A stretch of 28,806 nucleotides of DNA from Gaiellaceae bacterium (GTDB taxonomy: Bacteria; Actinomycetota; Thermoleophilia; Gaiellales; Gaiellaceae). The number at the start of each line of letters is the position of its first letter. The first letter of the stretch is position 1. Shown one piece after another: positions 7,302 through 27,058 of this stretch. The notes under the pieces were generated by a model. The model was given only the letters and a program-made list of their open reading frames with translations, had not been told where the DNA came from and did not search any database. Made by a program: the position numbers and the translations under genes. The stretch lies in the NCBI GenBank assembly GCA_036380395.1, contig DASVEU010000117.1, positions 1 through 28,806 of the forward strand. Reading direction: 5' to 3'.

Positions 7302-7373
7302 ATGCTCGAACTGCTGAAGAGCAAGCTTCGTGGTTTTCCGACCGGAAACCTCGGCCTGCGGATCGGCTCCTAG
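7302..7373 (+). CDS. Candidate 23-aa small protein MLELLKSKLRGFPTGNLGLRIGS
   Basis: GAAAGG SD-like motif about 10 nt upstream of ATG 7302. 16 of 22 internal codons end in G/C. Its TAG interlocks with the nitrilase TAG in a CTAG palindrome. Confidence 0.4.
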   Translation: MLELLKSKLRGFPTGNLGLRIGS

Positions 7374-8269: not shown

Positions 8270-8278
8270 GGGCTGAGC

Positions 8279-9289: not shown

Positions 9290-9295
9290 GGGTGT

Positions 9296-9745: not shown

Positions 9746-9752
9746 AGGCTAG

Positions 9753-9758
9753 ACCCTA
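9753..9758 (-). promoter_or_regulatory. Candidate internal -10 hexamer TAGGGT for a leaderless MOSC transcript
   Basis: TANNNT 7 nt upstream of GTG 9745; it overlaps the hydantoinase B stop codon. Confidence 0.4.
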
Positions 9759-11225: not shown

Positions 11226-12958
11226 TGTCGCGTGAGCCTCAGCATGCGACCATCCCTAGCCCCCACCCACCCAGGGGGAATCCAGCACGTGGAGCCGGCG
11301 AGCTCGACGACGGCGGGGCCGTAGATCGTCGTTTCCTTGCCGCGCGGCAGCTCGAGCTCGGGTCCCCGACGGATGTCGGCGGTCCGCACAGCCACCAGCT
11401 GGACTTCGCGGTCCCGCTCCGCGAACCCGTACTGCTCTTCGTGTGCGCGGTGAAATGCGTCGGCCAAATCTTCCTGCAGCGGCACGGTCAGTTCGAAGGA
11501 CTGTCCCGCGTAGCGGAGATCGGCTTCGCCTTCCCGCGGCAGCTCGCCGGCGTCCCGAAGGGGGACGAGATACGAGCGCACCGCGTCTCGCCGCTCCTCC
11601 GACGCGACCAGTCCGAGTGCCGACAGCACGCCCGCGGCCTCCGGGACGAGCGCGGTGCGAATGCCAAGCTCGTCCGCCAGCTCGCACGCGTGCAGTGGGC
11701 CGGCTCCGCCGAACGCCACGAGCGCGAAGTCCGCCGGGTCGTGCCCGCGCTCCACGGAGACGACGCGCAGCGCACGCAGCATCTCCGCGTTGACGACATC
11801 GACGACCGCCGCCGGATCGATTCCCGCGAGTGCGCGCTCGGCCGCCGCGCGGTCGAGCTCGACGCCGCCGGCGAGCTGGTGAGGCAGTCGGCCGAGCAGG
11901 AGGTTCGCATCGGTGACCGTGCCCTGCGTTCCGCCGCGTCCGTAACACGCCGGGCCCGGATCTGCGCCGGCGCTCTGCGGACCGACATGCAGTGCACCGC
12001 CGGCGTCCGTCCAGACGAGCGAGCCCCCGCCCGCACCGACGGTGTGCAGGTCGACCGTCGAGAGGCGGATCGGCAGGCCTGCGACAGTTCGTTCGCTTGC
12101 GCGCTGGGCGCGACCGCCCGCGATCAGGCACACGTCCGTCGACGTGCCACCCATGTCGAACGCGATCGCGTTCTCGATGCCGTCCAGTGCCGCGAGTCGT
12201 GCAGCGCCGACCACACCGGCGGCGGGGCCGGAGACGAGAATCGTCGCCGGATGATCGGCCGCTTCGTCGGGGGTCGCAACCCCTCCCGAGGAACGCATGA
12301 CGAGCGGCTCCGGTAAGCCTGCTGCCGCGGCAGCGTCTGCCAGCGCGTGCAGGTAGCGCGCCACGACCGGCCCGAGGTAGGCATCGGCCGCGGTGGTCGA
12401 CGCCCGCTCGTACTCCCGGAACTCCGGCGCCACCTCGTGCGAGGCGACGACGTGCGCATCCGGCAGCCTGCGCCGGAGCTCCTCGACAACGACGCGCTCG
12501 TGCGACGGATCGCGGTACGCGTGTAAGAGGCACACCGCGACCGCGTCGGCGTCGATGTCCGGCAGCGTGCCGAGCTCGAGCGGCTCGAGCTCTCCCTCGG
12601 GACCCATGCGCCCGCGAATGCCGTATGAGCGGTCGAGCGGAACGAGCGGCTCGGGCCACGCCGCACACGGGCGGTAGAGCTGCGCGCGTGTCTGACGGCG
12701 CAGATGCAGGAGATGCTCGAAGCCGGCGGTGGTGACGAACGCTGTCCGCGCTCCCTTGCGCTCGAGCAGCGCGTTGGTCGCAACCGTCGTCCCGTGCGCG
12801 AAACGCTCGACGCGGTCGGCGCCCGCCGCTCGCGCTGCCGCGAGGACCGACTCCTCCTGGTGAGGGGCGGTGAGCACCTTGGCGGTGGTCACGCGACCGC
12901 CGTCCAGGACGACCGCATCGGTGAAGGTCCCGCCCACGTCGACGCCGAGCACAGCCAT
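11222..12958 (-). CDS. hyuA: Hydantoinase A / 5-oxoprolinase family ATPase subunit
   Basis: GVDVGGTFTD, HGTTVATNALLERKGA, EFREYERASTT, MRSSGG, SGPAAGVVGA, DMGGTSTDV, IHTV-like LHTVGAGGGS, GPQSAGADPGPACYGRGG, TVTDANLLLG, AFGGAGPLHA. Confidence 0.93.
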   Translation of the reverse strand: MAVLGVDVGGTFTDAVVLDGGRVTTAKVLTAPHQEESVLAAARAAGADRVERFAHGTTVATNALLERKGARTAFVTTAGFEHLLHLRRQTRAQLYRPCAAWPEPLVPLDRSYGIRGRMGPEGELEPLELGTLPDIDADAVAVCLLHAYRDPSHERVVVEELRRRLPDAHVVASHEVAPEFREYERASTTAADAYLGPVVARYLHALADAAAAAGLPEPLVMRSSGGVATPDEAADHPATILVSGPAAGVVGAARLAALDGIENAIAFDMGGTSTDVCLIAGGRAQRASERTVAGLPIRLSTVDLHTVGAGGGSLVWTDAGGALHVGPQSAGADPGPACYGRGGTQGTVTDANLLLGRLPHQLAGGVELDRAAAERALAGIDPAAVVDVVNAEMLRALRVVSVERGHDPADFALVAFGGAGPLHACELADELGIRTALVPEAAGVLSALGLVASEERRDAVRSYLVPLRDAGELPREGEADLRYAGQSFELTVPLQEDLADAFHRAHEEQYGFAERDREVQLVAVRTADIRRGPELELPRGKETTIYGPAVVELAGSTCWIPPGWVGARDGRMLRLTRQ

Positions 12959-12975
12959 TCAGGAAGACTGACAGC
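12959..12975. promoter_or_regulatory. 17-bp divergent intergenic region with overlapping candidate -10 hexamers (AAGACT on +, CAGTCT on -)
   Basis: Each hexamer lies exactly 6 nt from its start codon (GTG 12976 on +, ATG 12958 on -). Confidence 0.45.
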
Positions 12976-13647
12976 GTGGCAATCCGTGGGCTCCTCTTCG
13001 ACTTCGACGGCCTGCTGGTCGACACCGAGACTCCCTCCCGGCTCGTCTGGGAGGAGCTCTACCGCGAGCACGGTCACGAGTTGCCGCAGGATCGGTGGGC
13101 CACCCTCATCGGAACGATCGGCGCGCCTTTCGATCCGCTCGGACATCTCGAGGAGCTCGTCGGCAGGCGCCTCGACGAGCAGGCGCTGACCACACGTCGC
13201 CGCGCCCGCGAGTACGAGCTCACGGATCTCGAAGAGCTCAGACCTGGCGTGGAAGAGTATTTCGCCGAAGCCGAGCGGCTCGGCCTGCGCACCGCGGTGG
13301 TGAGCAGCAGCGACGACGACTGGATCGCGCGTCATCTCGGCCGGCTCGGTCACCTCGAAGGCCTCGACACGATCGTGGCCGCAAACGGCGACACGGCGCG
13401 GGCGAAACCTCGACCCGATCTCTACCTCGAGGCGCTCGACCGTCTCGAGCTCGAGCCGCACGAGGCTATCGCCTTCGAGGACTCACCGAATGGCGTCACC
13501 GCCGCGAAAGCAGCCGGGCTCGTCTGCGTGGCTGTGCCGAACCCGATGACGGCGACGCTCGCGCTCGACGACGCCGACCTCGTGCTCGAATCGCTTGCAG
13601 ACGTCCCCCTGCGCGGGTTGCTCGAACGGTTCCGATCGGCGCGATGA
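12976..13647 (+). CDS. HAD superfamily hydrolase, subfamily IA (phosphatase)
   Basis: Motif I FDFDGLLVDTE, motif II VVSSS, motif III KPRPDLY, motif IV AFEDSPNGVTAAKAAG. Confidence 0.93.
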   Translation: MAIRGLLFDFDGLLVDTETPSRLVWEELYREHGHELPQDRWATLIGTIGAPFDPLGHLEELVGRRLDEQALTTRRRAREYELTDLEELRPGVEEYFAEAERLGLRTAVVSSSDDDWIARHLGRLGHLEGLDTIVAANGDTARAKPRPDLYLEALDRLELEPHEAIAFEDSPNGVTAAKAAGLVCVAVPNPMTATLALDDADLVLESLADVPLRGLLERFRSAR

Positions 13648-13988
13648 AGGCATTGACGCAGATGAAGTGCGTCGCCTGTCGCAAGGACGCCCCGACCTTG
13701 GCCGATGCCGAGATCGCAGAACTGCATCCCCAGATTCCTGACTGGGAAATCGTCGAGCTCGACGGGATCAAACGTCTGAGACGCGTCTTTGCGGTCGATG
13801 ATTTTGCGCAGGCACTGGAACTCACGAACGAAGTCGCCGAGCTTGCGGAGCAGGAGCAACATCACCCGGCGCTGCTGACCGAGTGGGGCAGGACGACGGT
13901 CACGTGGTGGACGCACAAGATCAAAGGCCTGCATCGCAACGACTTCATCATGGCGGCGAAGACGGACCAGCTGTACCTGCGCTACTAG
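13644..13988 (+). CDS. phhB: Pterin-4-alpha-carbinolamine dehydratase (4a-hydroxytetrahydrobiopterin dehydratase)
   Basis: MKALTQMKCVAC (PhhB-like N-terminus), catalytic EQEQHHP, EWGRTTVTWWTHKIKGLHRNDFIMAAKTD. ATGA overlap with the HAD gene; I moved the start to 13644. Confidence 0.93.
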   Translation: MKALTQMKCVACRKDAPTLADAEIAELHPQIPDWEIVELDGIKRLRRVFAVDDFAQALELTNEVAELAEQEQHHPALLTEWGRTTVTWWTHKIKGLHRNDFIMAAKTDQLYLRY

Positions 13989-14890
13989 ACCCCGTTCTTG
14001 CGGAGCTCCGCGACGATCGCGGGCACGATCTCGTGGAGGTCGCCGATCACGGCCCAGTCTGCGCGCGCGACGATCGGTGCGCTCTGGTCCTTGTTGATCA
14101 CGAGGATCCGCTTGGCGGCCTTGCACCCGACGATGTGCTGGATTGCGCCGCTGATGCCGCAGGCGATGTAGAGGTCGGGCGCGATCCGCGCACCCGTCTG
14201 TCCGACCTGATCGGAGTGCGGTCTCCAGCCGAGGTTGGTGACGACGCGCGAGCCGCCGACGGCACCCCCGAGGAGGTTCGCGAGCTCCTCGAGCAGTTCG
14301 AACCCCTCTTTGCTGCCGACGCCGCGGCCGCCGCCGACAACGACGCGCGCGGTGTCGAGCCGAACGGTGCCGGCGGTCGGTTGCTCGCGGCCTGACACCC
14401 GCACGACGAAGTGTTCGTCGGCGAGGGACGGGGTGAACTCCTCCGTCGTCGTAGTGACGCCGGCGGGCTGCGCCACGACGGCATGCGCGGCGACCGTGAG
14501 CAGCTTCGGCGTTCCGGTGAGCCGGGCCTCTTCCAGCAGGCTGCCGCCCCAGCGCTGGCGCGTGAGCTGCAAGGCGTCGCCGTCGGTTGCAGCCGCGACG
14601 ACATTCGCGGCCAGTGGGACGCCCAGCCGCGCCGCGACGTGGGCCAGCACCTCGTGCCCGCGGTCGGTGCCCGGGGCGACCACGACCTCCGGCTCGAGCT
14701 CGACGATCGCCTGCGCCCACGCCTCGGGCGCGTAGTCCCCAAGTCGCGGGTGCACAACGCGGCGCGCGCGTGCGGTGTAGCCGTCGACGTCCGTCTCCTC
14801 GAAGATCAGCGCCTCGACGTCACCGAGTTCGCGTGCGAATGTCAGCGCTTCGAGCGAGACCGGGTCGCCGTCGACGAGGCAGAGGATCAT
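13985..14890 (-). CDS. etfA: Electron transfer flavoprotein alpha subunit
   Basis: ARVVVGGGRGVG, LGGAVGGSRVV, QVGQTG..IAPDLYIACGISGAIQH, INKD..API, GDLHEIVP. Start ATG 14890 overlaps the etfB stop (ATGA). Confidence 0.93.
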   Translation of the reverse strand: MILCLVDGDPVSLEALTFARELGDVEALIFEETDVDGYTARARRVVHPRLGDYAPEAWAQAIVELEPEVVVAPGTDRGHEVLAHVAARLGVPLAANVVAAATDGDALQLTRQRWGGSLLEEARLTGTPKLLTVAAHAVVAQPAGVTTTTEEFTPSLADEHFVVRVSGREQPTAGTVRLDTARVVVGGGRGVGSKEGFELLEELANLLGGAVGGSRVVTNLGWRPHSDQVGQTGARIAPDLYIACGISGAIQHIVGCKAAKRILVINKDQSAPIVARADWAVIGDLHEIVPAIVAELRKNGV

Positions 14891-15648
14891 GACGTCACCA
14901 CTAGCCCGAGCTCGCGCAGCACCTCCACGACGCGCGGCGCCGCGGCGGCGCCGGCGAGGATCTCGGCGTGCGTCTCCTGCTCCGGCGGGACGACGAGCCT
15001 GATCGTCTCCAGCGCGCTCGCGCGCGGCTGTGGCTCGATCCGCGCGATCGGCGTCTTCTTCGCACGCAGCCGCCCGGGCAGCGACGCGTAGCGCGGCAGA
15101 TTGATTCCTTCCTTCACCGTGACGACCGCCGGCAGCGGCAGCTCGAAGATCTCCCAGCCGCCGCCTGCCTCGCGCCGCGCTGTCAGCTTCCTGTCCTCGA
15201 TCGCGATGCCCTTGATGCCGGTGACGCACGGGAGCCCCAGCGCATGAGCGACGCGAACGCCCACCTGGTAGTCGCCGGTGTCCGCCGCCTCGTTGCCGAA
15301 CAGCAGCACGTCGAACAGTTCGGGTTGCGCGCTAATCGCGTCTGCGAGTGCAGCGGCCGTCGCCTCAGCGTTCCAGTCACTCCCGTCGGTCTCGAGCAGC
15401 ACGGCGTTGTCCACGCCCATCGCCATGGCGTTCTGTAGCTGTTCGGCGGCGTCGGGCGGTCCCAGGGTCAGCACCGTCGTCGACCCCCCGTGCTTCCCGA
15501 CGATGCGCAGCGCTTCCTCGACGGCGCACTCCTCGTGCGGCGAGATCGTGAAGCCGAGCAGGCTCGTGTCGATCGCCTGCGCGTCGCCCGTGAGCGTGAT
15601 GCGTGCCCCCGTCTCGGGAACGCGCTTCACGCACACGATGACGTTCAA
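14887..15648 (-). CDS. etfB: Electron transfer flavoprotein beta subunit
   Basis: NVIVCVKRVP, ISPHEECAVEEALRI, VLTLGP, AMAMGVDNAVL, LPLPAVVTVKEGINLPRYASLPGRLRAKK. TTG start 15648 overlaps the upstream TGA (TTGA). Confidence 0.92.
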   Translation of the reverse strand: MNVIVCVKRVPETGARITLTGDAQAIDTSLLGFTISPHEECAVEEALRIVGKHGGSTTVLTLGPPDAAEQLQNAMAMGVDNAVLLETDGSDWNAEATAAALADAISAQPELFDVLLFGNEAADTGDYQVGVRVAHALGLPCVTGIKGIAIEDRKLTARREAGGGWEIFELPLPAVVTVKEGINLPRYASLPGRLRAKKTPIARIEPQPRASALETIRLVVPPEQETHAEILAGAAAAPRVVEVLRELGLVVTS

Positions 15649-18167
15649 CTCCGAACCCGAGTGTTCTCTGGATCGAAGAGCGGGCGGCTGCCCTTGACCG
15701 CGACGCTGACGGGATAGCGGTCGCCCATGTATTGGACCAGGAGCTTGTTGCCCTCCTCCGCATGCTCGGGCGGCAGGTATGCGAGCAGCACGTGCTTGCC
15801 CACGGAGGGCCCCGAGCCCGCGCTGGTCACGTAAGAGCCTCGTCCTTTGCTGTCGGCGATCCGCGCGCCGTCCGCCGTGAGGATCGGCTCGCGCCCGAGC
15901 ATGTAGCGCTTCTTTCCGTTCGAGGGCGAGGTGTTGTCGTCGACGGTGAGCGTCGAGAGAATCGCCGCGGGCTCCTCGTTCCGGTGGCGGACGTGCGCGT
16001 CCTTGCCGATGAAGTCGGCATCCTTCACCTTCGGCCGCTGCATGTCGGCCTCGACGACGTTGTATTCCGTCTCCAGTTCCGCGCCGTACAACCGGTAGCC
16101 CTTTTCGATCCGGCCGGTCGTGCCGTAGACGCCGATCCCTGACGGGACGACGCCGAACGGCTGTCCCGCCTCTCGGATCGTGTCCCACAGCGCGGCGCCT
16201 TGCTCCATCGGGGCGTACAGCTCCCAGCCGAGCTCGCCGACGTACGAGATGCGCGACGCGAGGGTACGTACTGGCCCGATGTCGATCCAGCGGCAGCGCA
16301 AGAACGGAAAGCCCTCGTGTGAGACGTCGGCGCTCGTGGTTGCTTCCAGGATGTCGCGCGCGCGCGGCCCCCAGAGGCCGAGCGTGCACCATGCGGAGGT
16401 CACGTCGTCGAGCGCGGCGGAGCCGTCCGCGGGCAGCTGGTCCTCGAACCACTTGCGGTCGCGCGGACCGTCCAGGCCGCCGGTGACGACCCGGAAGAAG
16501 TTGTCGCCGAGACGCATGATCGTGAGGTCGGCCTTGAAGCCACCGTGCTGGTCGAGAATCGACGTGTAGACGACTCGGCCGACCGCGACGTCCATCTCCG
16601 CAAGCGCCAGGCGCTGCAAGTGTTCAAGCGCTCCGGAGCCGACGATGTCGAAGACGGCGAAGGCCGAGATGTCGATCATCGCCGCACGGTCGCGCATCGC
16701 AAGATGCTCGGCGTTGATGATCGGCGACCACCAGCGCGATTCCCACTCCGCCTCGCGAGGCATCACGCGGTCGCCGTACTCCTCGAGCAGCGGCTCGTTC
16801 GACGCGTACCACCACGGACGCTCCCAGCCGGCGGTCTCGTAGAACACCGCGCTCAGCTCGCGCTCGCGCGCGTAGAACGGGCTCAACCGCACCTCGCGGT
16901 TCGACAGCCACTGCTCCATCGGATGAACGATCCCGTAGGTGCGGTTGTAGCCCTCCGAGGAGCGTGCGTCGACGTGGCGCTTCGTGCGCTGATGCGGGTA
17001 GAAGCGCGCCACGTCCGCGGTATGCAGATCTGTCTCCGGCGCGCCTTCCACGGCCCATTCGGCGACGGCCTTCGCGATCCCGGGTGCCTCCTTGATCCAG
17101 ATCGCGGCGACGGACCACAGGTTCTTGACCTCCGTCTCTCCCAGCAGGGGCATGCCGTCGGGAGTGAGCGACAGCAGCCCGTTGATCGCGTGCCGGATGC
17201 CCGCTCCCTCGACGGTGAGGATCTCCGGGAAGAGCTCGAGTGCCTGCTCGAGCTGCGGATCGAAGTCCTCGGACGTGAACGGCAGCTCGGTCGGCGACAG
17301 CGCGGACTCCTCGATCGATGGGATCTGGTCGGGCTCCAGCAGAATCGCGCGGTGCGCGTACGAGCCGACCTCCATGTCGCTTCCGTTCTGGCGCTCGTAC
17401 ATGTTCGTGTCCACGTCGCGCACGATCGGGAAGGAGATCTCGCCGGGCGTCTCTTCGAAGAGCGGGATCGGTCCCACGCTGATCATCTGGTGCACAGCCG
17501 GCGTCAGCGGGATCGTCGCGCCCGCCATGCGCGCGATGCGCGGGCTCCAGATCCCGCACGCGACGAACACGTACTCGGCGTCGATCGAGCCTTTGTCGGT
17601 GTGGACGCGCCGCACACGGTTGTTCTCGACGTCGATACCGGTGACCTCGGTGCTGGCGAACACGCTCGCACCGCGTTCCTGCGCGTACTCGCGCATCAGC
17701 GTGCCGGCGCGCAACGGGTCGACGACGGAAACGCCCGGCGTGTAGAAGCCGCCGAGAATGACGTCCGTGTTGAGGAACGGCACCTTCTTGAGCACCTGCG
17801 CCGGCGTCAGCAGCTCGCACCCCTCCTCGCCCCAGGAGAGCGCCGACGACATCCGCCGGTTCAGCTCCTCCATCCGCTCCTTCGTCCGGGCGACCTCGAC
17901 GCCGCCGCTGATCGTGGCGAGCCCGAGCTCGATGTACTGGCGGGCGCTCTCTTTCGTGAGCGTCGTCATCTCCTTCGAGTGGTCGACAGGGAAGATGAAG
18001 TTCGACGCGTGACCCGTCGAGCCGCCTGGGTTGGGCAGGGGACCCTGCTCGAGCAAGACCAGATCCGTCCAGCCGAGCCGCGAGAGGTGGTACGCGATGC
18101 TGTTGCCGACGATGCCGGCGCCGACCACTACGGCCTGCGCGGATGACGGTAGAGGGATAGTGCTCAC
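15645..18167 (-). CDS. Dimethylglycine/sarcosine dehydrogenase-like flavoprotein (FAD oxidase domain plus GcvT-like THF-binding domain)
   Basis: VVVGAGIVG (FAD), GPLPNPGGSTGHASNF (covalent-FAD His position as in dimethylglycine oxidase), AVHQM, INGLLSLTPDGMPLLG, FYETAGWERPWWY, C-terminal RISYVGELGWELY and RIEKGYRLYG. 840 aa, coupled to etfBA. Confidence 0.88.
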   Translation of the reverse strand: MSTIPLPSSAQAVVVGAGIVGNSIAYHLSRLGWTDLVLLEQGPLPNPGGSTGHASNFIFPVDHSKEMTTLTKESARQYIELGLATISGGVEVARTKERMEELNRRMSSALSWGEEGCELLTPAQVLKKVPFLNTDVILGGFYTPGVSVVDPLRAGTLMREYAQERGASVFASTEVTGIDVENNRVRRVHTDKGSIDAEYVFVACGIWSPRIARMAGATIPLTPAVHQMISVGPIPLFEETPGEISFPIVRDVDTNMYERQNGSDMEVGSYAHRAILLEPDQIPSIEESALSPTELPFTSEDFDPQLEQALELFPEILTVEGAGIRHAINGLLSLTPDGMPLLGETEVKNLWSVAAIWIKEAPGIAKAVAEWAVEGAPETDLHTADVARFYPHQRTKRHVDARSSEGYNRTYGIVHPMEQWLSNREVRLSPFYARERELSAVFYETAGWERPWWYASNEPLLEEYGDRVMPREAEWESRWWSPIINAEHLAMRDRAAMIDISAFAVFDIVGSGALEHLQRLALAEMDVAVGRVVYTSILDQHGGFKADLTIMRLGDNFFRVVTGGLDGPRDRKWFEDQLPADGSAALDDVTSAWCTLGLWGPRARDILEATTSADVSHEGFPFLRCRWIDIGPVRTLASRISYVGELGWELYAPMEQGAALWDTIREAGQPFGVVPSGIGVYGTTGRIEKGYRLYGAELETEYNVVEADMQRPKVKDADFIGKDAHVRHRNEEPAAILSTLTVDDNTSPSNGKKRYMLGREPILTADGARIADSKGRGSYVTSAGSGPSVGKHVLLAYLPPEHAEEGNKLLVQYMGDRYPVSVAVKGSRPLFDPENTRVRS

Positions 18168-18850
18168 GCGCTCGTCAGCACTCGCCGCATGACCTCTTCG
18201 AAGTCGAGCACGTGCCGGCGCATCGTCGCCTCGGCGCGGTCGGCGTCTCCGTCACGAATTGCCTCCAAGAGCTCGCGATGGCCCAACACCGCCTCCTCCA
18301 GCTCCGGGGCGCGATCGAGCGCGAGGTACCAGATCCGCAGCGCCAGGACGTAGTACTCCTCGAGTGTGGCCTCGAGGAAGGGGTTGTGGGCACAGCTGTA
18401 CACCTGACGGTGGATCCGCTCGTCCAGGGCCATCAGCTCGCGCGCGTCCAGCTCGCTCTGGCCTCCCAACTCGCCGAGGAGGGTCTCCAACGCGTTGCGG
18501 TCTTCGTCGGTCGCCCGCTCGGCGGCGAGGCGCGCTACGTGGCTTTCCAGAGCCGATCGCACCTCAGCGAGACTGGCCAGATCGCGGATCTCCACGCTCG
18601 TGACGAACATGCCCCGGCGGGGGTAGACCTCGACCAATCGCTCCTGCGAGAGGCGACGTAGGGCCTCGCGGGTCGGCGTGCGCCCGATCCCGAGTCGGTC
18701 CATCAACCCGCGCTCGTCGATCACCGCCCCGGGCCGCAGCTCGACCGAAACGATCATCTCCCGGATCGCGTGGTACGCCCGGTCGGCGAGCGAGGCCGTC
18801 GCCCCGCTCGAGGCCTGGAGGACGCTGACCTGCCCCTTCGCCTCTGCCAC
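18164..18850 (-). CDS. GntR family transcriptional regulator (FCD domain)
   Basis: HTH LADRAYHAIREMI...LRPG...LGIGRTPTREALRRL..E.LVEVYPRRGMFV; FCD motifs LDERIH and HRELLEAIRDGDADRAEATMRRHV. Confidence 0.94.
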   Translation of the reverse strand: MAEAKGQVSVLQASSGATASLADRAYHAIREMIVSVELRPGAVIDERGLMDRLGIGRTPTREALRRLSQERLVEVYPRRGMFVTSVEIRDLASLAEVRSALESHVARLAAERATDEDRNALETLLGELGGQSELDARELMALDERIHRQVYSCAHNPFLEATLEEYYVLALRIWYLALDRAPELEEAVLGHRELLEAIRDGDADRAEATMRRHVLDFEEVMRRVLTSA

Positions 18851-18851
18851 G

Positions 18852-18872
18852 GAGATACATTACTCATATCTC
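18852..18872. promoter_or_regulatory. Inverted repeat GAGATA-N9-TATCTC; candidate GntR operator overlapping divergent -10 boxes
   Basis: AT-rich dyad directly upstream of the gntR GTG. It contains TAATGT (minus strand, 6 nt from the start) and TACATT (plus strand). Confidence 0.5.
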
Positions 18873-18914
18873 AGTTCGTTCCCATCCGCACCAGAACGGG
18901 ACGTAGAGGACGCC

Positions 18915-19664
18915 GTGACGGGCTCTTCTGAAATCGAGGACGACGTCGTAGCCGAGGGCGTCCGGGTCCTCTCGGCCGCGCGCGACCAGGCTCTGCCGCT
19001 TCGTCTGCTTGGCGGCGTCGCTGTCCGCCTCAGGAGTCGGAACGAATTGCCTGCGGCGCTGCAACGGACGTACGGCGACCTCGACTTCGTTACCGCCCGG
19101 CGTGCCTCGGGTCCTGCGCAGAAGTTCTTCCGCGACCTCGGTTACTCGCCGCAGGTTTCATTCAACGCACTCAACTCGCGGGAACGCCTGCTCTTCTTCG
19201 ACGAGGATCACGGCCGCCAGGTCGACGTCTTCGTGGGCTCGTTCCGCATGTGCCACGAGATTCCGCTCGAAGGACGCATGGAGCTGGACGAGACGTCGAT
19301 CCCACTCGCCGAGCTCCTGCTGACGAAGCTGCAGGTAATTCAGCTGAACGAGAAGGACGTGCGCGATGCGATCGCGGTCCTGCATGACCGTGAGCTCGGA
19401 GACGAGGACGGCGACACGGTCAACGCGGGACGGATTGCGCAACTCTGCTGTGAGGACTGGGGCCTCTGGCGGACAATCACCCGCAACCTCGAAGCGTGCC
19501 GTAAGCAGGCGGGTGCCTACGGCGAGGATCTCGCCGACGTTGCCACCCGCTTCTCGGAGCTCGAGGAGCGGATCGAGGCCGAGCCGAAGTCACGCGCCTG
19601 GCGCCTGCGCGCGAAGATCGGCGAACGCAAGCGCTGGTACGACCTTCCGGAGGAACGCGCATGA
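18915..19664 (+). CDS. Uncharacterised nucleotidyltransferase-fold protein (Pol-beta superfamily)
   Basis: LLGGVAV (GG.A), RTYGDLDFV (DxD), a third Asp in VDVF and helical LAELLLTKL. GAGG SD before GTG 18915; I moved the start from 18678. Confidence 0.7.
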   Translation: MTGSSEIEDDVVAEGVRVLSAARDQALPLRLLGGVAVRLRSRNELPAALQRTYGDLDFVTARRASGPAQKFFRDLGYSPQVSFNALNSRERLLFFDEDHGRQVDVFVGSFRMCHEIPLEGRMELDETSIPLAELLLTKLQVIQLNEKDVRDAIAVLHDRELGDEDGDTVNAGRIAQLCCEDWGLWRTITRNLEACRKQAGAYGEDLADVATRFSELEERIEAEPKSRAWRLRAKIGERKRWYDLPEERA

Positions 19665-20602
19665 GGCTCTTCTTCGCCACTGACATCCACGGGTCCGAGA
19701 CGTGCTGGCGGAAGTTCCTGAACAGCGGGCTGCATTACGAGGCGGACGTAATCGTCCTCGGAGGCGACATGACCGGGAAGGCGCTCGTTCCCGTCGTCGA
19801 CGAAGGCGACGGCCGCTGGCACGCCACCCTGCTCGAAAACCGCGAAGAGCTCGTCGGCGAAGACGAGGTCGTGGCCTTCGAGGAAGCCGTGATTCGGCGC
19901 GGTTACTACCCGTTCAGGACCACATCCGAAGAGGTGCGCGAGCTGCAAGACGACGAGGCGCGTTGGCACGGGCTGTTCGAGGACGAGATGCTGAAGACCG
20001 TGGAGCGGTGGATGCAGGTGGCGGATGAGAAGCTTGCCGGCAAAGGCATCCGCTGCTTCGTCTGTCCCGGCAACGATGATCAGCTCAACGTCGACGATGT
20101 CATCCGCGGCGCGAAGAGCGTCGAGCTCGCCGAGGGAGAGGTGGTCGAGATCGGCGGGTACCAGATGGTCTCGAGCGGCTGGGCGAACCGAACACCGTGG
20201 GATACCTATCGAGAGGAGGATGAGGAGGACCTCGAGATCCGGATCCGGAAGATCACGGATCAGGTGACGGCCCCTCCCGAGCGGACGATCTTCAGTTTGC
20301 ACTGTCCTCCGTACAAGTCCGGGCTCGACGACGCTCCACAACTGACGAAGGACATGCATCTGAAGGAGGCGGGACGCTCCACTGTCCCGGTCGGCTCGAC
20401 CGCGGTGCGCGCAGCGATCGAAGAGCATCAGCCCTGCCTCGGCCTCCACGGTCACATCCACGAGGCGAAGGGCACCACGCGCATCGGCCGAACTCTCTGC
20501 ATCAACCCGGGGAGCTCGTACGAGCAAGGCCAGCTGCTCGGTGCCGTCGTCGATCTCGACGGCAAGAAGAAGGTCAAGCGGTTCATCCTCACGAGCGGAT
20601 AG
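19661..20602 (+). CDS. Calcineurin-like metallophosphoesterase (Icc-related)
   Basis: ATDIHGS (DxH), GGDMTGK (GD), PGNDD (GNxx variant), HCPP, HGHIHE (GHxH), INPGS. ATGA overlap with the nucleotidyltransferase. Confidence 0.9.
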   Translation: MRLFFATDIHGSETCWRKFLNSGLHYEADVIVLGGDMTGKALVPVVDEGDGRWHATLLENREELVGEDEVVAFEEAVIRRGYYPFRTTSEEVRELQDDEARWHGLFEDEMLKTVERWMQVADEKLAGKGIRCFVCPGNDDQLNVDDVIRGAKSVELAEGEVVEIGGYQMVSSGWANRTPWDTYREEDEEDLEIRIRKITDQVTAPPERTIFSLHCPPYKSGLDDAPQLTKDMHLKEAGRSTVPVGSTAVRAAIEEHQPCLGLHGHIHEAKGTTRIGRTLCINPGSSYEQGQLLGAVVDLDGKKKVKRFILTSG

Positions 20603-20613
20603 GAGGAACACGA

Positions 20614-22230
20614 ATGGCAACGATGTCCGGGCCAGCTCAAGCAGGAGAGCAAGCCCTTTTCGTCCGCAAGGCGACCGGCCTCGTCAAAGGCTGGTCGGTC
20701 CGCGACGCGTTCATCTACTCGGCGATCTCGATCAACTTCGTCACGCTGGGCCTGTACGCGTTCTCCTTCGCGAACTTCATTCCCAGGGGCAGCCTGTTCT
20801 GGGCGGCGATCCTCTCGGGTGCGTACCTGATCTTCCAGGCGATCACCTACGCCTCGCTGATTGCGGCGATGCCGCGCGCCGGCGGCGACTACGTCTGGAT
20901 CAGCCGGACGCTCGGCGGCGGGATCGGGTTCGTGCTGGCCGCTTGCGGATGGTGGTTCATCCTCTGGCACTGGGTCCCGATCTACGCGAACATCCTCAAC
21001 ATCATGGTGCTGGGCCCGCTCTCGGCCATCGTCGGCTGGGATCGCGGAGTCACGTTCTGGTCGAGCCACAACGGCGTTTTCACCTCGTCGATGATCGTCG
21101 CGCTGATGGCGTCGGTGCTGGTTGCGGCCGGGGTCCGGGCGTACGCACGCTTCCAGAAGATCTGCTTCTACGGCGGCTGCGTGGGCCTCCTGATCATGTT
21201 CATCCTCCTTGTCGTACATTCGAAGAGCGACTTCATCTCCGCGTTCAACGCGCAGGCGCACGACGTCTACCACACCTCCGGGGACGCGTACGCGGCGACG
21301 GCGAAGGCGGGCAGCGCGGGGACCTACGCATCACTCGGGTCATTCCACTTCGGCCAGATCGTGCTGTTGATTCCGATCCTCTTCTTCTTCAATCTCTGGT
21401 CGAACTGGGGTGCGACTCTGTACGGCGAGGTCCGGGGAGCGTCGGACTTCCGCAAGAACATCTACGCGATGGGCGGGGCTCTGCTCGCGACGACCGCGGT
21501 CGCGGCGATCTTCTTCGGCCTGTTTGCACACACGTTCGGCTGGCAGTGGTATCACGCGTCGAACGCCGCCTACTGGGCCGGTACCGGGCCGCTCGGCGTC
21601 TTTCCCTACCCAGGAACGCTGGTTGCCTTCTTCACCGGGAGCGCTGCGCTCCAGTTCATCATCGTCGGCATCCTGAGCCTCTGGTTCTTCGGCTGGGTCG
21701 GGACGGTCTTCCTGTCGTCGACCCGCGTCGTCTTCGCTGCGGCGTTCGACCGCGTCCTGCCCGAGGCCGCGGCGAAGGTCAGTGCCAAGGGCGTCCCGTA
21801 CGGTGCGCTGGCGTTGATGCTGATCCCGTCGATTCCGATCAGCTACTTCTACGCGTACAACACGAAGTTCAGCAGTTGGACGTTCGACGCAACGTTGGTG
21901 ATCGCGATCACGTTCCTCGGCTCGGCGGTCTCGGCGGCGATCTTCCCGTGGCGCCGGCCGGACATCTACAACGCCTCGCCGATCGCGAAGTACAAGGTGG
22001 CCGGCATTCCGCTGATCACCGCGGCGGCGACGGCCTTCACGGCGATCCTCGTGTTCGCCCTCTACCACTGGTTCAAGGACTCCGTCTACGGCGTCAACTT
22101 CCGGAACTCGGAGTACTACATGGCGGTGCTCTATGGCGTTGCGATCGCGGTCTACGTCGTGTCGTGGCTCTACCGACGCTCGCAAGGGTTGAGTCTGAAG
22201 ATGGTCTATGGAGAGATACCGGCTGAGTAG
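20614..22230 (+). CDS. APC superfamily amino acid/amine permease
   Basis: Strong SD AGGAGG; about 12 hydrophobic segments; LFVRKATGLVK, AMPRAGGDYVWISRTLG, YGEV, SSTRVVFAAAFDRVLP. Confidence 0.9.
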   Translation: MATMSGPAQAGEQALFVRKATGLVKGWSVRDAFIYSAISINFVTLGLYAFSFANFIPRGSLFWAAILSGAYLIFQAITYASLIAAMPRAGGDYVWISRTLGGGIGFVLAACGWWFILWHWVPIYANILNIMVLGPLSAIVGWDRGVTFWSSHNGVFTSSMIVALMASVLVAAGVRAYARFQKICFYGGCVGLLIMFILLVVHSKSDFISAFNAQAHDVYHTSGDAYAATAKAGSAGTYASLGSFHFGQIVLLIPILFFFNLWSNWGATLYGEVRGASDFRKNIYAMGGALLATTAVAAIFFGLFAHTFGWQWYHASNAAYWAGTGPLGVFPYPGTLVAFFTGSAALQFIIVGILSLWFFGWVGTVFLSSTRVVFAAAFDRVLPEAAAKVSAKGVPYGALALMLIPSIPISYFYAYNTKFSSWTFDATLVIAITFLGSAVSAAIFPWRRPDIYNASPIAKYKVAGIPLITAAATAFTAILVFALYHWFKDSVYGVNFRNSEYYMAVLYGVAIAVYVVSWLYRRSQGLSLKMVYGEIPAE

Positions 22231-22353: not shown

Positions 22354-23526
22354 GTGAGCGTAGAAGTCGAGACAGTCCGAACGGTCGAAGTGCCGACTCG
22401 GATCGTCCATGGTGCCGGCGCGATCGCGCGCGTGGGCGAGCTCGTCGCGGAGCTGGGAGTCAGTCGGCCGCTTCTGGTCACGGACAAAGGAGTCGTCGCG
22501 GCCGGTCTCGCCGATGCGACGCTTGCGCACCTCGAGAACGCGGTCCTCTTCGACGAGGTCCGCGCAAACCCGGACATCGAGCTCGTCGGGCGCGCCCGGA
22601 CCGCGTACGTCGAAGCCGGCTGCGACGGCCTCATCGCCCTCGGCGGCGGGAGCTCGATGGACACGGCGAAGTCGGTTGGCGTCGAGGTCGTCCACGGCGG
22701 CTCGATTGTCGAGTACGAGTACGGCGGGACGCCGATCACGACGCGCATCCCGCCGCTTGTCGCGGTGCCCACGACAGCGGGAACCGGGAGCGAGGCCACG
22801 CTCTGGGCCGTGATCACGGATCCGGAGCGAAAGATCAAGTTCAACGTCGGCGGCACGCCGTTGATCGGCGCGCACGTCGCGCTCGTCGACCCCGAGCTGA
22901 TGCTCGGCCTTCCGCCGGCGATCACCGCGGCGACCGGGATGGATGCACTCTCGCACGCGATCGAGTGCTACACGTGTGACTACCACCAACCCTTCAACGA
23001 CGCCGTTGCGCTCCTGGCGACCGAGCTCGTCGCACGCTCGCTGCGCGTCGCCTACGAAGACGGCGGCGATCTCGAGGCGCGCACGGACATGGCGCACGCC
23101 GCGACACTCGGCGGACTTGCCTACGGGACCGAGAGCGCGGGCGCAGCCCATGCCATGAGCCAGTCGGCAGGCGGCGTGCACGAGTGTCCGCACGGCGCGC
23201 TCACGGCACGAGTGCTCGGACCTGTGTGCGAGTACAACGCGCCCGCGGACCCGGAGCGCTACGCCCGCATCGCGCAGGGTCTCGGGGTCGACGTCCACGG
23301 ACTGTCTCCACTCGAAGCCGCGCTTGCCGGGGTCGATGAGGTCTACCGGCTCACTGACGACGTCGGCATTCCGAGCATGGCAGAGCTCGGCTTCTCGGAG
23401 GAAGAGATTCCGATGCTTGCCAGAATCGCCTACGAGGATCCGCAGACGATCGGAAACCCACGCGAGGTCGACGCCACCGCCTACGAAGAGATCTATCGCA
23501 ACTCCTTCGCGAGAGGGAAACGCTGA
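22354..23526 (+). CDS. gbsB: Iron-containing (type III) alcohol dehydrogenase, GbsB-type choline dehydrogenase
   Basis: General Fe-ADH motifs (GGGSSMDTAK, PTTAGTGSE, GMDALSHAIECY). It also has segments I recognise from B. subtilis GbsB: RIPPL, KFN.GG.PLI.AH, YG[ST]ESAGAAHAMSQ and DPQT.GNPR. Confidence 0.85.
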   Translation: MSVEVETVRTVEVPTRIVHGAGAIARVGELVAELGVSRPLLVTDKGVVAAGLADATLAHLENAVLFDEVRANPDIELVGRARTAYVEAGCDGLIALGGGSSMDTAKSVGVEVVHGGSIVEYEYGGTPITTRIPPLVAVPTTAGTGSEATLWAVITDPERKIKFNVGGTPLIGAHVALVDPELMLGLPPAITAATGMDALSHAIECYTCDYHQPFNDAVALLATELVARSLRVAYEDGGDLEARTDMAHAATLGGLAYGTESAGAAHAMSQSAGGVHECPHGALTARVLGPVCEYNAPADPERYARIAQGLGVDVHGLSPLEAALAGVDEVYRLTDDVGIPSMAELGFSEEEIPMLARIAYEDPQTIGNPREVDATAYEEIYRNSFARGKR

Positions 23527-24980
23527 GCACGCGCACGAGCGACTACTCGATGTACGTCGGCGGCTCGTGGGTCGAAAGCGAGTCCGGTGAACGGATGGAG
23601 GCGACCAGTCCGGCAACAGGTGAGACGATCGGGTCCGTCCCCGAGGCGACGCGCGACGACGCTCGGCGGGCGATCGCGGCGGCCAACGCGGCCGCGCGCG
23701 AGTGGGCGGCCCGCTCGGCTTTCGAGCGCGCGGCGGCAATGGAGCGAGTAGCCGAGATCATCGAGGAGCGCCGTGATGACCTTGCGCGCACGCTCACGCT
23801 CGACCAGGGCAAGCCCCTGCGCGCCGAGTCCTACGGCGAGGTGGATGAGCTCATCGAGTACTGGCGAATGGCCGCAGGCGATGCGCGACGGCTCGAAGGT
23901 CTCATGCCGCCGTCGGTGGACGCGTCGAAGCGGGTGCTCGCCTACCGCGTTCCGCGCGGGGTCGTCGGCGTGATCACGCCGTGGAACTGGCCGTACACGA
24001 TGGCTGCGGAGGTAGTCGCTCCGGCGCTCGCCTCGGGAAACACCGTCGTCTGGGGGCCGGCGACTTCGACGTCGGTGTGCTCGGTCAAGCTGGCCGAGTG
24101 CGTCGTGGACGCCGAGCTTCCCGCCGGGGTCTTCAACCTGGTGACCGGCCCCGGCTCGGTCGTCGGAGACGAGATTGCAACAAACGCTGGCACGCACGCA
24201 ATCGGCTTCGTCGGCTCGGTCGCCACGGGGTACCGCGTCGCCGAGCGCGCCGCGGGCAAGGCGCTTCTGCTCGAGATGGGAGGGAACGGTCCCCTGGTCG
24301 TCCTCGAGGACGCGGACCTGGACGGCGCCGTCGAGGCGACGCTCGCGGCTGCGTTCCTGTGCGCCGGACAGAGCTGCACCGCCGGCGAGCGCTTCCTCGT
24401 GCACGAGGACGTCCACGACGAGTACCTCGACAAGCTGACGGCAGCGGTCGCGAAAACGATCCGACTGGGCGACCCCTTTGCGGACGAGACGACGATGGGC
24501 CCGCTCAACAACGAGCGCACCGCCGCGAAGATGGACAACCACGTCGGCGACGCGGTCGAGCGCGGCGCGGTGCTCGTCGCCGGCGGCGCGCGCGCGCGCG
24601 AGTTTCCCACGGACCTGTACTACGAGGCGACCGTCCTCGACCGTGTGAACGACGAGATGGATGTCGCCAAAGACGAGACGTTCGGGCCGGTCGTTCCCAT
24701 TTCGACGATCCGGAGCGAGGACGAGGCACTCGCGATCATCGACTCGTCCCCGTACGGGCTGCTGGCCGCCGTCTTCACGAACGACCTTCGCCGCGGCCTG
24801 CGGTTCGCCGAGGCTGCGCGGACCGGCTGGGTGAACATCAACGAGTCGACGAACTACTGGGAGAGCCATCTCCCGTTCGGAGGGCGGGCCGGGTCGCAAA
24901 GCGGGATCGGCCGGGTCGGCGGACGCTTCTCGATGGAGACGTTCACGGAGCTCAAGACCGTAGTCGTGAATCTGGGCTAA
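23523..24980 (+). CDS. NAD(P)-dependent aldehyde dehydrogenase; betaine aldehyde dehydrogenase by context
   Basis: ITPWNWP, GFVGSVATG, LEMGGNG (general-base Glu), AGQSCTA (catalytic Cys), ETFGP, PFGG. The first ATG is 23550; an in-frame CTG at 23523 overlaps the gbsB TGA and has a GAGGG SD. Confidence 0.9.
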   Translation: MSTRTSDYSMYVGGSWVESESGERMEATSPATGETIGSVPEATRDDARRAIAAANAAAREWAARSAFERAAAMERVAEIIEERRDDLARTLTLDQGKPLRAESYGEVDELIEYWRMAAGDARRLEGLMPPSVDASKRVLAYRVPRGVVGVITPWNWPYTMAAEVVAPALASGNTVVWGPATSTSVCSVKLAECVVDAELPAGVFNLVTGPGSVVGDEIATNAGTHAIGFVGSVATGYRVAERAAGKALLLEMGGNGPLVVLEDADLDGAVEATLAAAFLCAGQSCTAGERFLVHEDVHDEYLDKLTAAVAKTIRLGDPFADETTMGPLNNERTAAKMDNHVGDAVERGAVLVAGGARAREFPTDLYYEATVLDRVNDEMDVAKDETFGPVVPISTIRSEDEALAIIDSSPYGLLAAVFTNDLRRGLRFAEAARTGWVNINESTNYWESHLPFGGRAGSQSGIGRVGGRFSMETFTELKTVVVNLG

Positions 24981-24999: not shown

Positions 25000-26211
25000 G
25001 TGACGAAGATCGTCGAGCACCCCGAGGTCTTGCTGTACACGCGGGTCCGGAAGTCGCCGTACTTTTACGCGTCGCGCCGTCACGGCGTGCACATGTACAG
25101 CTTCTACAACCACATGTACCACCCTCGTCACTACGGCGACCCGGTGGCGGAGTACTGGGAACTTCTGAACGGTGTCACGCTCTGGGACGTCGGGGTCGAG
25201 CGGCAGGTGGAGATCACGGGGCCCGACGCGTTCACGCTGGCGAACATGCTCGTCCCGCGCGACCTGAACAAGTGTGCGGTCGGGCAGTGCAAGTACGTTT
25301 TCATCACTGCTCCCGACGGCGGCATCATCAACGACCCGATCCTGCTGCGGCTGGAAGAGAACCACTTCTGGATCTCCGTCGCGGACAGCGATGTGCTCCT
25401 GTGGGCGATGGGGGTCGCCTACAATTCGGGGCTCGACGTCAAGATCGGCGAGCCGGATGTCGGCCCGATGCAGATCCAGGGCCCGAAGTCGAGGGACGTG
25501 CTCGTCGACCTCCTTGGCGACAGCGTGCTCGAGATTCCGTACTACTTCCTGAAGGATTACGAGCTCGAGGGCATGCACTTGACGGTCTCGCGCACGGGCT
25601 ACACCTCCGAGATCGGGTTCGAGATCTACTGCCGCGATGCGGCCAACAACGGCATCAAGCTCTGGGACCTGGTGCTCGAGGCGGGCAAGCCGCACGGCCT
25701 CGCCGTTATCGGGCCCTGCCACATCCGCCGCATCGAGGGCGGCATCCTGGCGTACGGCGCGGACATGTGGCTGGATACGAACCCCTACGAGGTCGACCTG
25801 GGCTACGAGTGGATGGTCGACCTCGAGCAGGAGGCGGACTTCGTGGGGAAGGACGCGCTGCGGAAGATCAAGGAGAAAGGAATCTCGCGAAAGCTCGTGG
25901 GCGTTGAGATCGGCGGCGCCAAGCTCGGCTCCTACAACGACGGCTCGATGATGGACTTCTTCCCTGTGTCCGCCGATGGGAAGAACATCGGCAAGGTGAC
26001 GTCGGCATGCTTCTCGCCGCGCCTCGAGAAGAACATCGGCTACGCGATGGTTCCGATCGAGTACGCCGAGCTGGGGACGGAGCTCGAGGTCGAGAGGCCG
26101 GAAGAGAAGACCTCGGCCGTTGTCGTCCGCAGGCCGTTCATCGATCCTGAGAAGGAGATTCCGAAGCAGGACCTCGCGGCCGCGGGGGCCAGGGACGAAT
26201 CGAGCAGCTAA
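25000..26211 (+). CDS. GcvT-family THF-dependent methyltransferase/demethylase, DmdA-like
   Basis: AGGAGG SD. RVRKSPY, YNHMYHP, LWDVGVERQVEITGPDA, NDPILLRL, ISVADSD, IQGPKS, SRTGY..EIGFEIY, RRIEGG...YGAD and SACFSPRL follow the DmdA pattern as I recall it (YNHM..P, WDV..ERQVEI.G.D, ADSD, YEVY). Confidence 0.8.
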   Translation: MTKIVEHPEVLLYTRVRKSPYFYASRRHGVHMYSFYNHMYHPRHYGDPVAEYWELLNGVTLWDVGVERQVEITGPDAFTLANMLVPRDLNKCAVGQCKYVFITAPDGGIINDPILLRLEENHFWISVADSDVLLWAMGVAYNSGLDVKIGEPDVGPMQIQGPKSRDVLVDLLGDSVLEIPYYFLKDYELEGMHLTVSRTGYTSEIGFEIYCRDAANNGIKLWDLVLEAGKPHGLAVIGPCHIRRIEGGILAYGADMWLDTNPYEVDLGYEWMVDLEQEADFVGKDALRKIKEKGISRKLVGVEIGGAKLGSYNDGSMMDFFPVSADGKNIGKVTSACFSPRLEKNIGYAMVPIEYAELGTELEVERPEEKTSAVVVRRPFIDPEKEIPKQDLAAAGARDESSS

Positions 26212-27058
26212 CGGAACCAATGCCGGTCGGGACGCGCTCGCCGCGCTACTGAGGCGTCCTCGCTACGAGGTGTTCCCCGTCGAGGGGATCGCCGACGACG
26301 TGGTCACGCACGTCCCGACCGAGATCAAGGTGGCGGTCACCTCGTCGCCGGCACGGGGGATCGAAGCGACGCTGCGACTGTGCGAGGAGCTCACGTCGGC
26401 CCAGTTCCAGGTTGCGCCGCACCTCGCAGCTCGCCTCGTCAGGGACGAGGAGCATCTGCAAGACATCCTTCAGCGGCTCTTCGCGATCGGCGTCCGCGAC
26501 GTCTTCGCGATCGCCGGCGACGCGGACCTGCCTGCAGGGAAGTTCGACGGCGCGACGGCGCTGCTCGTGGCGATGGCCGAGCTCGGGCACGGCCTGGAAC
26601 AGGTTGGGATCTCCGGCTACCCGGAGAGCCATCCCTTCATCAGCGACGAGACCACGATTCAGGTGATGTTCGACAAGGAGCCCTTCGCGACGTACATCGT
26701 CAGCCAGCTCTGCCTCGACGCCGGTGTGATCGCGTGGTGGATCGGAGCCGTCAGAGCCCGCGGCGTCCGGCTCCCCATCCACATCGGGATTCCCGGGCCG
26801 ATTGCGAGCACGAAGCTCCTTCGCATCGCGACGAGGATCGGAGTCGGTGAGTCGACGCGATTTCTGCGCCGGCACGGCGGGCTGCTCGCACGCCTGTTCC
26901 TGCGCGGCCGCTACGGCCCCGGCTCGCTGATCGAGCAGTTGGCGCCGCAGCTCGCCGACCCAGCGTCCGCAATCGGCGGCTTCCATGTCTACACGTTCAA
27001 TGAACTGGCGACGACGGAACGCTGGCGGCGCGAGGCGCTTCGCCGCCTCGAGTCCTGA
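26120..27058 (+). CDS. metF: Methylenetetrahydrofolate reductase-like flavoprotein (MetF family)
   Basis: YEVFP (catalytic Glu), PHLAAR, AIAGD (Asp), GYPESHP, IVSQL, IGIPGP, FHVYTFN. The start is ambiguous (TTG 26120, ACG 26195, CTG 26249 or GTG 26270). Confidence 0.8.
   Translation: MSSAGRSSILRRRFRSRTSRPRGPGTNRAANGTNAGRDALAALLRRPRYEVFPVEGIADDVVTHVPTEIKVAVTSSPARGIEATLRLCEELTSAQFQVAPHLAARLVRDEEHLQDILQRLFAIGVRDVFAIAGDADLPAGKFDGATALLVAMAELGHGLEQVGISGYPESHPFISDETTIQVMFDKEPFATYIVSQLCLDAGVIAWWIGAVRARGVRLPIHIGIPGPIASTKLLRIATRIGVGESTRFLRRHGGLLARLFLRGRYGPGSLIEQLAPQLADPASAIGGFHVYTFNELATTERWRREALRRLES

Follow-up and report, generated by a model that had tools for sequence, protein, structure and literature searches.

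At positions 25000–26211 on the forward strand of a 28,806-nucleotide stretch of DNA from a Gaiellaceae bacterium (contig DASVEU010000117.1; the whole stretch is hereafter called the window) lies a gene for a 403-residue, DmdA-like protein of the GcvT fold. Its Pfam domains, its matches to the DmdA family model NF009133 and the DmdA structure 3tfh, its clade and its synteny make it a candidate glycine betaine:tetrahydrofolate (THF) methyltransferase. We put at about 60% the probability, drawn from genomic context, that this protein converts glycine betaine and THF to dimethylglycine (DMG) and 5-methyl-THF, the latter being reoxidized by a MetF-like methylenetetrahydrofolate reductase (MTHFR) homologue encoded downstream. 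A previous reading of the DNA made without database searches (the sequence-only reading) had singled out the protein as the best candidate for a betaine demethylase, and the context bears this out through the counts of neighbouring genes, the resemblance of the partner to S6MTHFR and the failure to find the known enzymes for this step.

A GcvT-fold protein related to DmdA

The stand-alone GcvT-fold gene of the sequence-only reading proved to be a real open reading frame, with a GTG start, AGGAAGAGGAGG ahead of it, a TAA stop at 26209–26211, and GCV_T (143 bits) and GCV_T_C (68 bits) domains. Possession of both domains (PF01571 and PF08669) and of the invariant residues D112, E208 and Y210 places the product in the GcvT-fold THF-binding superfamily. 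Its best NCBIfam model is that of DmdA (NF009133), at 344.6 bits against a cut-off of 410, and orthologues in other genomes score 335–346 bits on the same model. The protein also falls below the cut-offs of the trimethylamine N-oxide demethylase model and of the GcvT models NF001567 (195.6 of 300 bits) and TIGR00528 (166 of 236 bits), and far below those of DesA (NF047633; 73 of 800 bits) and LigM (NF047885; 52 of 580 bits), both of which give only partial alignments. By sequence, the closest solved structure is Pelagibacter ubique DmdA (3tfh; E=6e-71), and the motifs that had been quoted from the window protein (YNHM..P, WDV..ERQVEI.GPD, ADSD and FEIY) are all present in the alignment of the two. 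The description as DmdA-like thus holds as far as the best family and structure match is concerned, but does not extend to membership of the DmdA family, given the sub-threshold score and a separate clade.

An AlphaFold2 model of the protein was of modest confidence (mean pLDDT 68.6, with N-terminal pocket segments below 50), the input alignment being shallow at 29 sequences, all at least 72% identical. Foldseek searches with this modest-confidence model ranked DmdA first (TM 0.67/0.73), hardly above GcvT; DmdA and GcvT matches together ranged from TM 0.64 to 0.73.

Phylogenetic placement was determined by a quick IQ-TREE search over 115 rows, comprising 25 orthologues, nine class-level paralogues, 30 alphaproteobacterial sequences, full-length 50%-cluster representatives and, as the outgroup on which the tree was rooted, five canonical GcvT proteins. 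The orthologues and one representative formed a single clade with SH-aLRT support of 99; a separate clade, with support of 100, comprised the twelve sequences whose DmdA-model score was 456 bits or more. A deeper split, supported at 90 on each side, separates DmdA from the window clade, which it places with ∼50%-identical paralogues. The DmdA-model search covered 251 alphaproteobacterial genomes, in 14 of which matches exceeded the cut-off, with many more just below it. The window protein is 34–39% identical to these above-cut-off DmdAs, and when we looked for the betaine context at true DmdA loci none of it was seen.

The orthologues retain the catalytic Asp112 together with the folate-binding residues Glu208 and Tyr210, and about 30 positions are fixed differently between the orthologue and DmdA clades. 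Invariant in the orthologues are Y13, S25, R26, H28, Y40, H41, R43, H44, K98, F101, H241 and Y269, of which Y13, R26, H28, Y40, H41, R43, H44, H241 and Y269 appear to constitute a remodelled residue set in the candidate pocket region. The tryptophan of DmdA that contacts dimethylsulfoniopropionate (DMSP), which we took from the literature, is W171 (PMC7487153), or W197 in the chain numbering of 3tfh. The equivalent residue is Tyr201 in 25 of 25 orthologues, and among the sampled above-cut-off DmdAs it is Trp in seven, Tyr in four and Phe in one. This position therefore decides nothing, since 4 of 12 true DmdAs also have tyrosine there. The GYT motif at positions 200–202 of the window protein is GcvT-like. 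Judged by its sequence, the window protein follows the DmdA plan yet is not a DmdA.

A Rosetta stone search among long family representatives found no fusion with MTHFR; the fusions it did find were one of a DmdA-like domain with an AMP-binding domain and one with ornithine cyclodeaminase. P0143, a 694-residue representative that is 44% identical to the window protein and a likely member of the DMSP pathway, continues from its DmdA-like domain into the beginning of an AMP-binding (DmdB-like acyl-CoA ligase) domain, which reflects either a fusion or a gene call that ran on.

Conservation of the gene neighbourhood

We collected orthologue loci by scanning species-representative genomes, obtaining 80 loci whose orthologues are 70–98% identical to the window GcvT-fold protein. 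They come from Gaiellales, Solirubrobacterales, Thermoleophilaceae, Acidimicrobiales, the cultured Rubrobacter marinus SCSIO 52915, two Steroidobacteraceae metagenome-assembled genomes (MAGs) and one Alphaproteobacteria MAG; close homologues of the window itself are from MAGs of Gaiellaceae and other Thermoleophilia. The orthologues in the Steroidobacteraceae (L049 and L051) and Alphaproteobacteria (L083) MAGs are 73% identical, have an adjoining MetF-like gene and nest among actinobacterial sequences, so that either horizontal transfer or mis-binning accounts for them.

Flanks were annotated by tblastn with few queries, namely the window proteins and three proteins of a second locus, and neighbour counts were restricted to the 46 orthologue loci whose flanks reach 8 kb or more on each side. 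The sequence-only reading had named orthologues travelling without choline or DMG genes as the finding that would count against it. The check found instead a MetF-like gene in 44 of the 46 loci, a DMG-oxidase-like gene likewise in 44, and a choline dehydrogenase in 40 (GbsB in 14 and the unrelated GMC type in 26), all three occurring jointly in 37/46. Electron-transfer flavoprotein (ETF) genes and a GntR regulator were each present in 30 loci and an aldehyde dehydrogenase in 27. Moreover, the MetF-like gene lies on the same strand within 300 nt of the GcvT-like gene in 49/63 orthologue loci. At least seven gene orders were seen, with the MetF-like gene before or after, the DMG-oxidase arm upstream, downstream or divergent, and either GbsB or GMC as the choline dehydrogenase; the association therefore does not reflect one inherited operon layout.

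We also sampled 151 genomes of one order, which are related by kinship, so that these counts are descriptive rather than statistical. An intact GcvT-like orthologue was found in 12 of the 151 and a frameshift-split one in 2 more. All 14 of these orthologue-bearing genomes carry an orthologous DMG-oxidase-like gene (65–68% identical), mostly adjoining the GcvT-like gene or a few kilobases off and a little over 8 kb away in two (G599 and G205). Among the 137 genomes without a GcvT-like orthologue, only 5 have this DMG-oxidase-like gene. Single frameshifts split cluster genes in some long-read MAGs, affecting the DMG-oxidase-like gene in L019/G468 and sequences at G563:C21:13924-15124 and G578:C8:353074-354244; these are probably assembly errors, which would hide orthologues from strict searches.

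GlpD and hydantoinase genes are not conserved parts of the cluster, being found at 0/46 orthologue loci. We accordingly rejected GlpD and the hydantoinase/CN-hydrolase genes as components of the pathway, together with the glycerophosphocholine and creatinine ideas attached to them. In the window, positions 7370–13988, beside the ETF arm, encode a CN-hydrolase, hydantoinase/oxoprolinase A and B subunits and a pterin-4a-carbinolamine dehydratase domain, all of them absent from the orthologue loci (0/46).

The MTHFR-like partner

Downstream of the GcvT-like gene, at 26120–27058 on the forward strand, is a divergent S6MTHFR-like homologue of methylene-THF reductase (Pfam MTHFR, 40 bits), presumed to be a 5-methyl-THF oxidase. 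It scores 45.5 bits on the canonical MetF model TIGR00676, for which the cut-off is 293.7. Among solved structures it has one strong relative only, S6MTHFR from Sphingobium lignivorans SYK-6 (7xg9; E=1.5e-36); the PDB match ranked second has an E value of 2e-6. Yu et al. 2025 (PMC11868366) showed that S6MTHFR oxidizes 5-methyl-THF and scarcely reacts with NADH, and assigned it to a 'type 4' group whose members are encoded with the THF-dependent demethylases LigM, DesA, CmuAB and Dmt. As in that group, the window MTHFR is nearest to S6MTHFR and is encoded with a presumed THF-dependent demethylase, the two genes being adjacent in 49/63 loci. The S6MTHFR residues E21, T46, P49, Q175, Y267 and F269 and the IAGD motif are kept in the window protein.

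The same genome has a second MTHFR domain, with a much better score (118 bits), fused to a homocysteine S-methyltransferase domain in a 629-residue, YitJ-like protein (G000:C214, L005:1378-3267), presumed to be the housekeeping MTHFR. Having a cluster partner that handles methyl-THF speaks for methyl-THF, rather than methylene-THF, as the product of the GcvT-fold enzyme.

The start of the MTHFR-like gene is unusual. Translation in the window could start at a TTG (26120) or a CTG (26249), or resume by reinitiation past the stop at 26211; conserved coding begins at ∼26225, past the GcvT-like stop. The downstream gene reported by the sequence-only reading was confirmed, but its overlap with the GcvT-like gene is uncertain, since it requires initiation at the TTG (26120). 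In 36 loci, window included, the MetF-like gene comes after the GcvT-like gene, and 20 of these lack any in-frame ATG, GTG or TTG between a point 60 nt before the upstream stop codon and RPRYEV, a conserved motif near the N terminus. Variation at third codon positions shows translation of the stretch before RPRYEV, and MetF-like genes that stand first in their operon have a normal ATG ∼24–26 codons before this motif. The start codon is missing in both Illumina and Nanopore assemblies. The site concerned is at 26120–26275 in the window and recurs in L031, L033, L035, L036, L047, L049, L051, L052, L056, L059, L060, L071 and L082. Programmed frameshift fusion was rejected as a general explanation: +1 and +2 frames both occur, and in L031 the MTHFR frame is closed upstream. 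A non-canonical start or termination–reinitiation coupling seems likelier than a frameshift fusion.

Search for known betaine demethylases

The contig carrying the window is part of a 1.98-Mb MAG. Profile searches found no homologues of BHMT, GbcA or MttB within the window, and the GcvT-fold protein itself has no homology to any of the three (PF02574, NF058607 and PF06253, respectively). The MttB family was not found in the window genome (57% complete) or in five other cluster-bearing genomes, at least three of which are complete or chromosome-level, and no GbcA above the cut-off of 670 (NF058607) was found in six genomes or in the 151 genomes of the order sample. Domains of the S-methyltransferase type occurred only in frames of MetH size (>1200 residues) or of ∼620–730 residues; the frame of the window genome, which is the one that was inspected, is the YitJ-like fusion with an MTHFR domain. 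Frames of ∼620 residues with an S-methyltransferase domain are present in three of the five other cluster-bearing genomes. A separate canonical GcvT (283–321 bits) was found in 5/5 genomes checked. The statement in the sequence-only reading that no known betaine demethylase is present thus agrees with what we found in the window and, for MttB and above-cut-off GbcA, in the genomes checked. In the library searched, the literature returned only corrinoid, BHMT and Rieske routes, and no GcvT-fold or THF-direct betaine demethylase.

Genes of the window around the GcvT-like gene

The placement of the GcvT-like gene directly after gbsB and an aldehyde dehydrogenase gene, as first read from the sequence, was confirmed. 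A GbsB-type iron alcohol dehydrogenase with Fe-ADH domains, a choline dehydrogenase, is encoded at 22354–23526 on the forward strand and exceeds the cut-off of the GbsB choline dehydrogenase equivalog (NF053866; 610 vs 550 bits). It is followed on the same strand at 23550–24980 by an aldehyde dehydrogenase (Aldedh, 503 bits), presumed to act on betaine aldehyde, which scores 388 and 362 bits on the betaine aldehyde dehydrogenase models, both below cut-off, and which travels with GbsB or GMC in the orthologue loci. The GcvT-like start is 19 nt past its stop.

Upstream on the forward strand, at 20614–22230, is an APC-family permease (AA_permease_2, 51 bits), presumed to take up choline or betaine, with orthologues in L035, L077, L090 and L105. 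The head of this right arm (18678–20602, forward strand) holds a nucleotidyltransferase-like and a metallophosphoesterase-like open reading frame with weak Pfam matches. These two co-occur with the permease in the same four loci, and partly in L062, as an accessory module; the three genes may serve the release or import of choline from a phosphorylated precursor.

The other arm is on the reverse strand. A GntR/FCD regulator (18164–18850; GntR and FCD domains) lies between the two arms, followed by an 840-residue flavoprotein (15645–18167) with FAD and GcvT domains (DAO, FAO_M, GCV_T and GCV_T_C). It resembles DMG oxidase or dehydrogenase, its best PDB match being Arthrobacter DMG oxidase over the full length (1pj5; E=4.7e-160). 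ETF beta (∼14887–15650) and alpha (∼13985–14890) genes with ETF and ETF_alpha domains complete the arm, spanning 13985–15650 with approximate boundaries. Farther off in the window, a family-2 O-methyltransferase gene (4590–5615) lies between selA (3382–4656) and selB (5537–7213).

Proposed reaction and alternatives

In the pathway that we propose, the permease would take up choline, which GbsB and the aldehyde dehydrogenase would oxidize to betaine. The GcvT-fold enzyme, cofactor-free, would then move one betaine N-methyl group onto N5 of THF by SN2 displacement, as DmdA does with the sulfonium DMSP, and the S6MTHFR-like flavoprotein would reoxidize the 5-methyl-THF to 5,10-methylene-THF. The divergent DMG-oxidase-like flavoprotein, with ETF, would remove the next methyl group, and the GntR regulator would control both arms. 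In this pathway the GcvT-like gene sits between the choline-to-betaine genes and the DMG-oxidase-like gene. Thermodynamics do not forbid betaine:THF transfer, since the corrinoid Mtg system runs the same net reaction in cells, and LigM illustrates that the GcvT fold can use poor leaving groups.

Several observations weigh against this assignment. Quaternary ammonium compounds donate methyl groups less readily than sulfonium compounds, and characterized DmdA is said not to use betaine, as Reisch et al. reportedly found in 2008. The window MTHFR lacks the type 4 signature residues L48, R78, C219 and P268, which are Ser, Leu, Ile and Thr instead when read from one pairwise HMMER alignment. Because of these replacements we regard it as a related but distinct branch, for which the methyl-THF-oxidizing direction would follow from its context. 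The pairing with a methyl-THF-reoxidizing MetF, as put forward in the sequence-only reading, gains from having the partner of LigM as nearest solved relative but loses from the missing signature residues. Each genome examined has an uncharacterized Rieske oxygenase with partial similarity to GbcA (∼150 of 670 bits); these GbcA-like matches cover the Rieske half only and are unlinked to the cluster. Furthermore, the genome carrying the window is only 57% complete, five genomes of the order sample have a DMG-oxidase orthologue but no GcvT-like gene, and the neighbour counts are not independent, most of the loci being those of related Thermoleophilia.

The context shows only that the substrate lies within choline and betaine catabolism, and the enzyme could instead be a THF-dependent methyltransferase acting on another onium compound, whether choline (giving dimethylethanolamine, which the alcohol and aldehyde dehydrogenases would take to DMG), betaine aldehyde, proline betaine or carnitine. 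The ∼50%-identical paralogues in other contexts imply that specificity varies within the family, and a corrinoid route for the direct demethylation of choline is known. The alcohol dehydrogenase, however, passes the equivalog cut-off for GbsB, and in other lineages a GMC enzyme replaces GbsB while the rest of the cluster stays, which fits choline being oxidized first. Moreover, the substrates bound by DmdA-type enzymes are carboxylates, and of the onium compounds in this pathway it is betaine that has the carboxylate. We therefore consider a donor other than betaine unlikely, albeit the most credible of the alternatives.

Less likely still is an aminomethyltransferase paralogue that forms methylene-THF, either by capturing formaldehyde or aminomethyl groups during sarcosine or DMG oxidation or as a spare glycine cleavage T protein, with the MTHFR working reductively. 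In favour of this are the GcvT fold, the GcvT-like GYT motif at 200–202 and, in the MetF-like protein, a Thr where type 1 and type 2 reductases have Thr. The window protein is nevertheless nearest to DmdA rather than GcvT and misses both GcvT cut-offs (195.6 of 300 and 166 of 236 bits), while a canonical GcvT is encoded elsewhere in all five genomes checked (283–321 bits). In addition, the DMG-oxidase-like protein carries its own folate domain, and the presumed housekeeping MTHFR is encoded separately. That the protein is a true DMSP demethylase lying by chance in a choline operon is very improbable, for although DmdA is its best family and structure match, it scores 344.6 of 410 bits, is 34–39% identical to above-cut-off DmdAs, belongs to a different clade and differs at many invariant pocket-region residues, and its type is found in soil Thermoleophilia with choline and DMG genes, a context that true DmdA loci do not have.

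With betaine as the preferred donor, we lean somewhat, though by less than for the reaction itself, towards the broader view that the clade represents a fourth, mechanistically new enzyme for converting betaine to DMG: a single GcvT-fold protein that would pass an N-methyl group straight to THF with no corrinoid, zinc-thiolate or oxygen, coupled, possibly translationally too, to a new methyl-THF-oxidizing branch of MTHFR, and widespread in abundant soil Thermoleophilia and in Rubrobacter.

Comparison with known systems

In soil and sea, few osmolytes and sources of methyl groups are as abundant as glycine betaine and choline. To our knowledge, three solutions to the betaine-to-DMG step are known, namely BHMT, the GbcAB oxygenase and the corrinoid Mtg system. 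All three are missing from many aerobic actinobacteria that possess the remaining pathway, a gap that a direct betaine:THF methyltransferase, if true, would close. Chemistry of the DmdA/LigM type would then reach quaternary amines, and the methyl carbon would pass into the folate pool rather than leave as formaldehyde. The annotation of betaine catabolism in soil metagenomes would change too, affecting genes now called 'glycine cleavage T protein'. Rubrobacter marinus SCSIO 52915 (L076), a cultured carrier, makes betaine as the substrate directly testable.

The window protein shares with DmdA (EC 2.1.1.269) a stand-alone GcvT fold of ∼370–400 residues, the YNHM, WDV, ERQ, NDP and FEIY motifs and, as proposed, the transfer of an intact methyl group from an onium donor to N5 of THF. 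It differs in that the window clade has Y40 and H41 where DmdA has Leu and Leu, and also has R26, R43, H44 and H241; in a context of choline and DMG rather than DMSP; and in a proposed donor that is an ammonium, not a sulfonium. A DmdA paralogue adjoining a MetF gene has been described before: SAR11_1265 lies next to the metF SAR11_1264, proposed to oxidize methyl-THF, and its authors guessed at demethylation of MMPA (Sun et al. 2011, PMC3160333). The likeness, a DmdA-like paralogue beside MetF, is one of description only. In the one SAR11-like genome that we sampled (G238), a 52%-identical paralogue lies beside an ammonium transporter and has no MetF neighbour, and a link of the window clade to SAR11_1265 was not established.

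The LigM–MetF–LigH module (7xg9/7xlf; PMC11868366) likewise places a THF-dependent GcvT-fold demethylase beside an MTHFR homologue that reoxidizes methyl-THF. Unlike LigM, however, the window demethylase is DmdA-like (52 of 580 bits on the LigM model) and its proposed substrate is a quaternary amine rather than an aryl methyl ether; in addition, no LigH-like gene was seen with the window cluster. BHMT and GbcAB/BmoAB, the two aerobic routes from betaine to DMG, serve the same pathway step, between the BetB/GbsA-type and DMG dehydrogenase genes, but are not homologous to the window protein, and the genomes checked yielded neither above its cut-off. Homocysteine and zinc are required by BHMT, whereas GbcAB needs O2 and NADH and releases formaldehyde. 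The closest parallel in net reaction is MtgB/MtgC/MtgA of Desulfitobacterium and acetogens, in which, as proposed here for the window protein, betaine and THF give DMG and methyl-THF. The window system would accomplish this with one polypeptide of unrelated fold, without an MttB-superfamily or corrinoid protein, and in aerobic-type actinobacteria.

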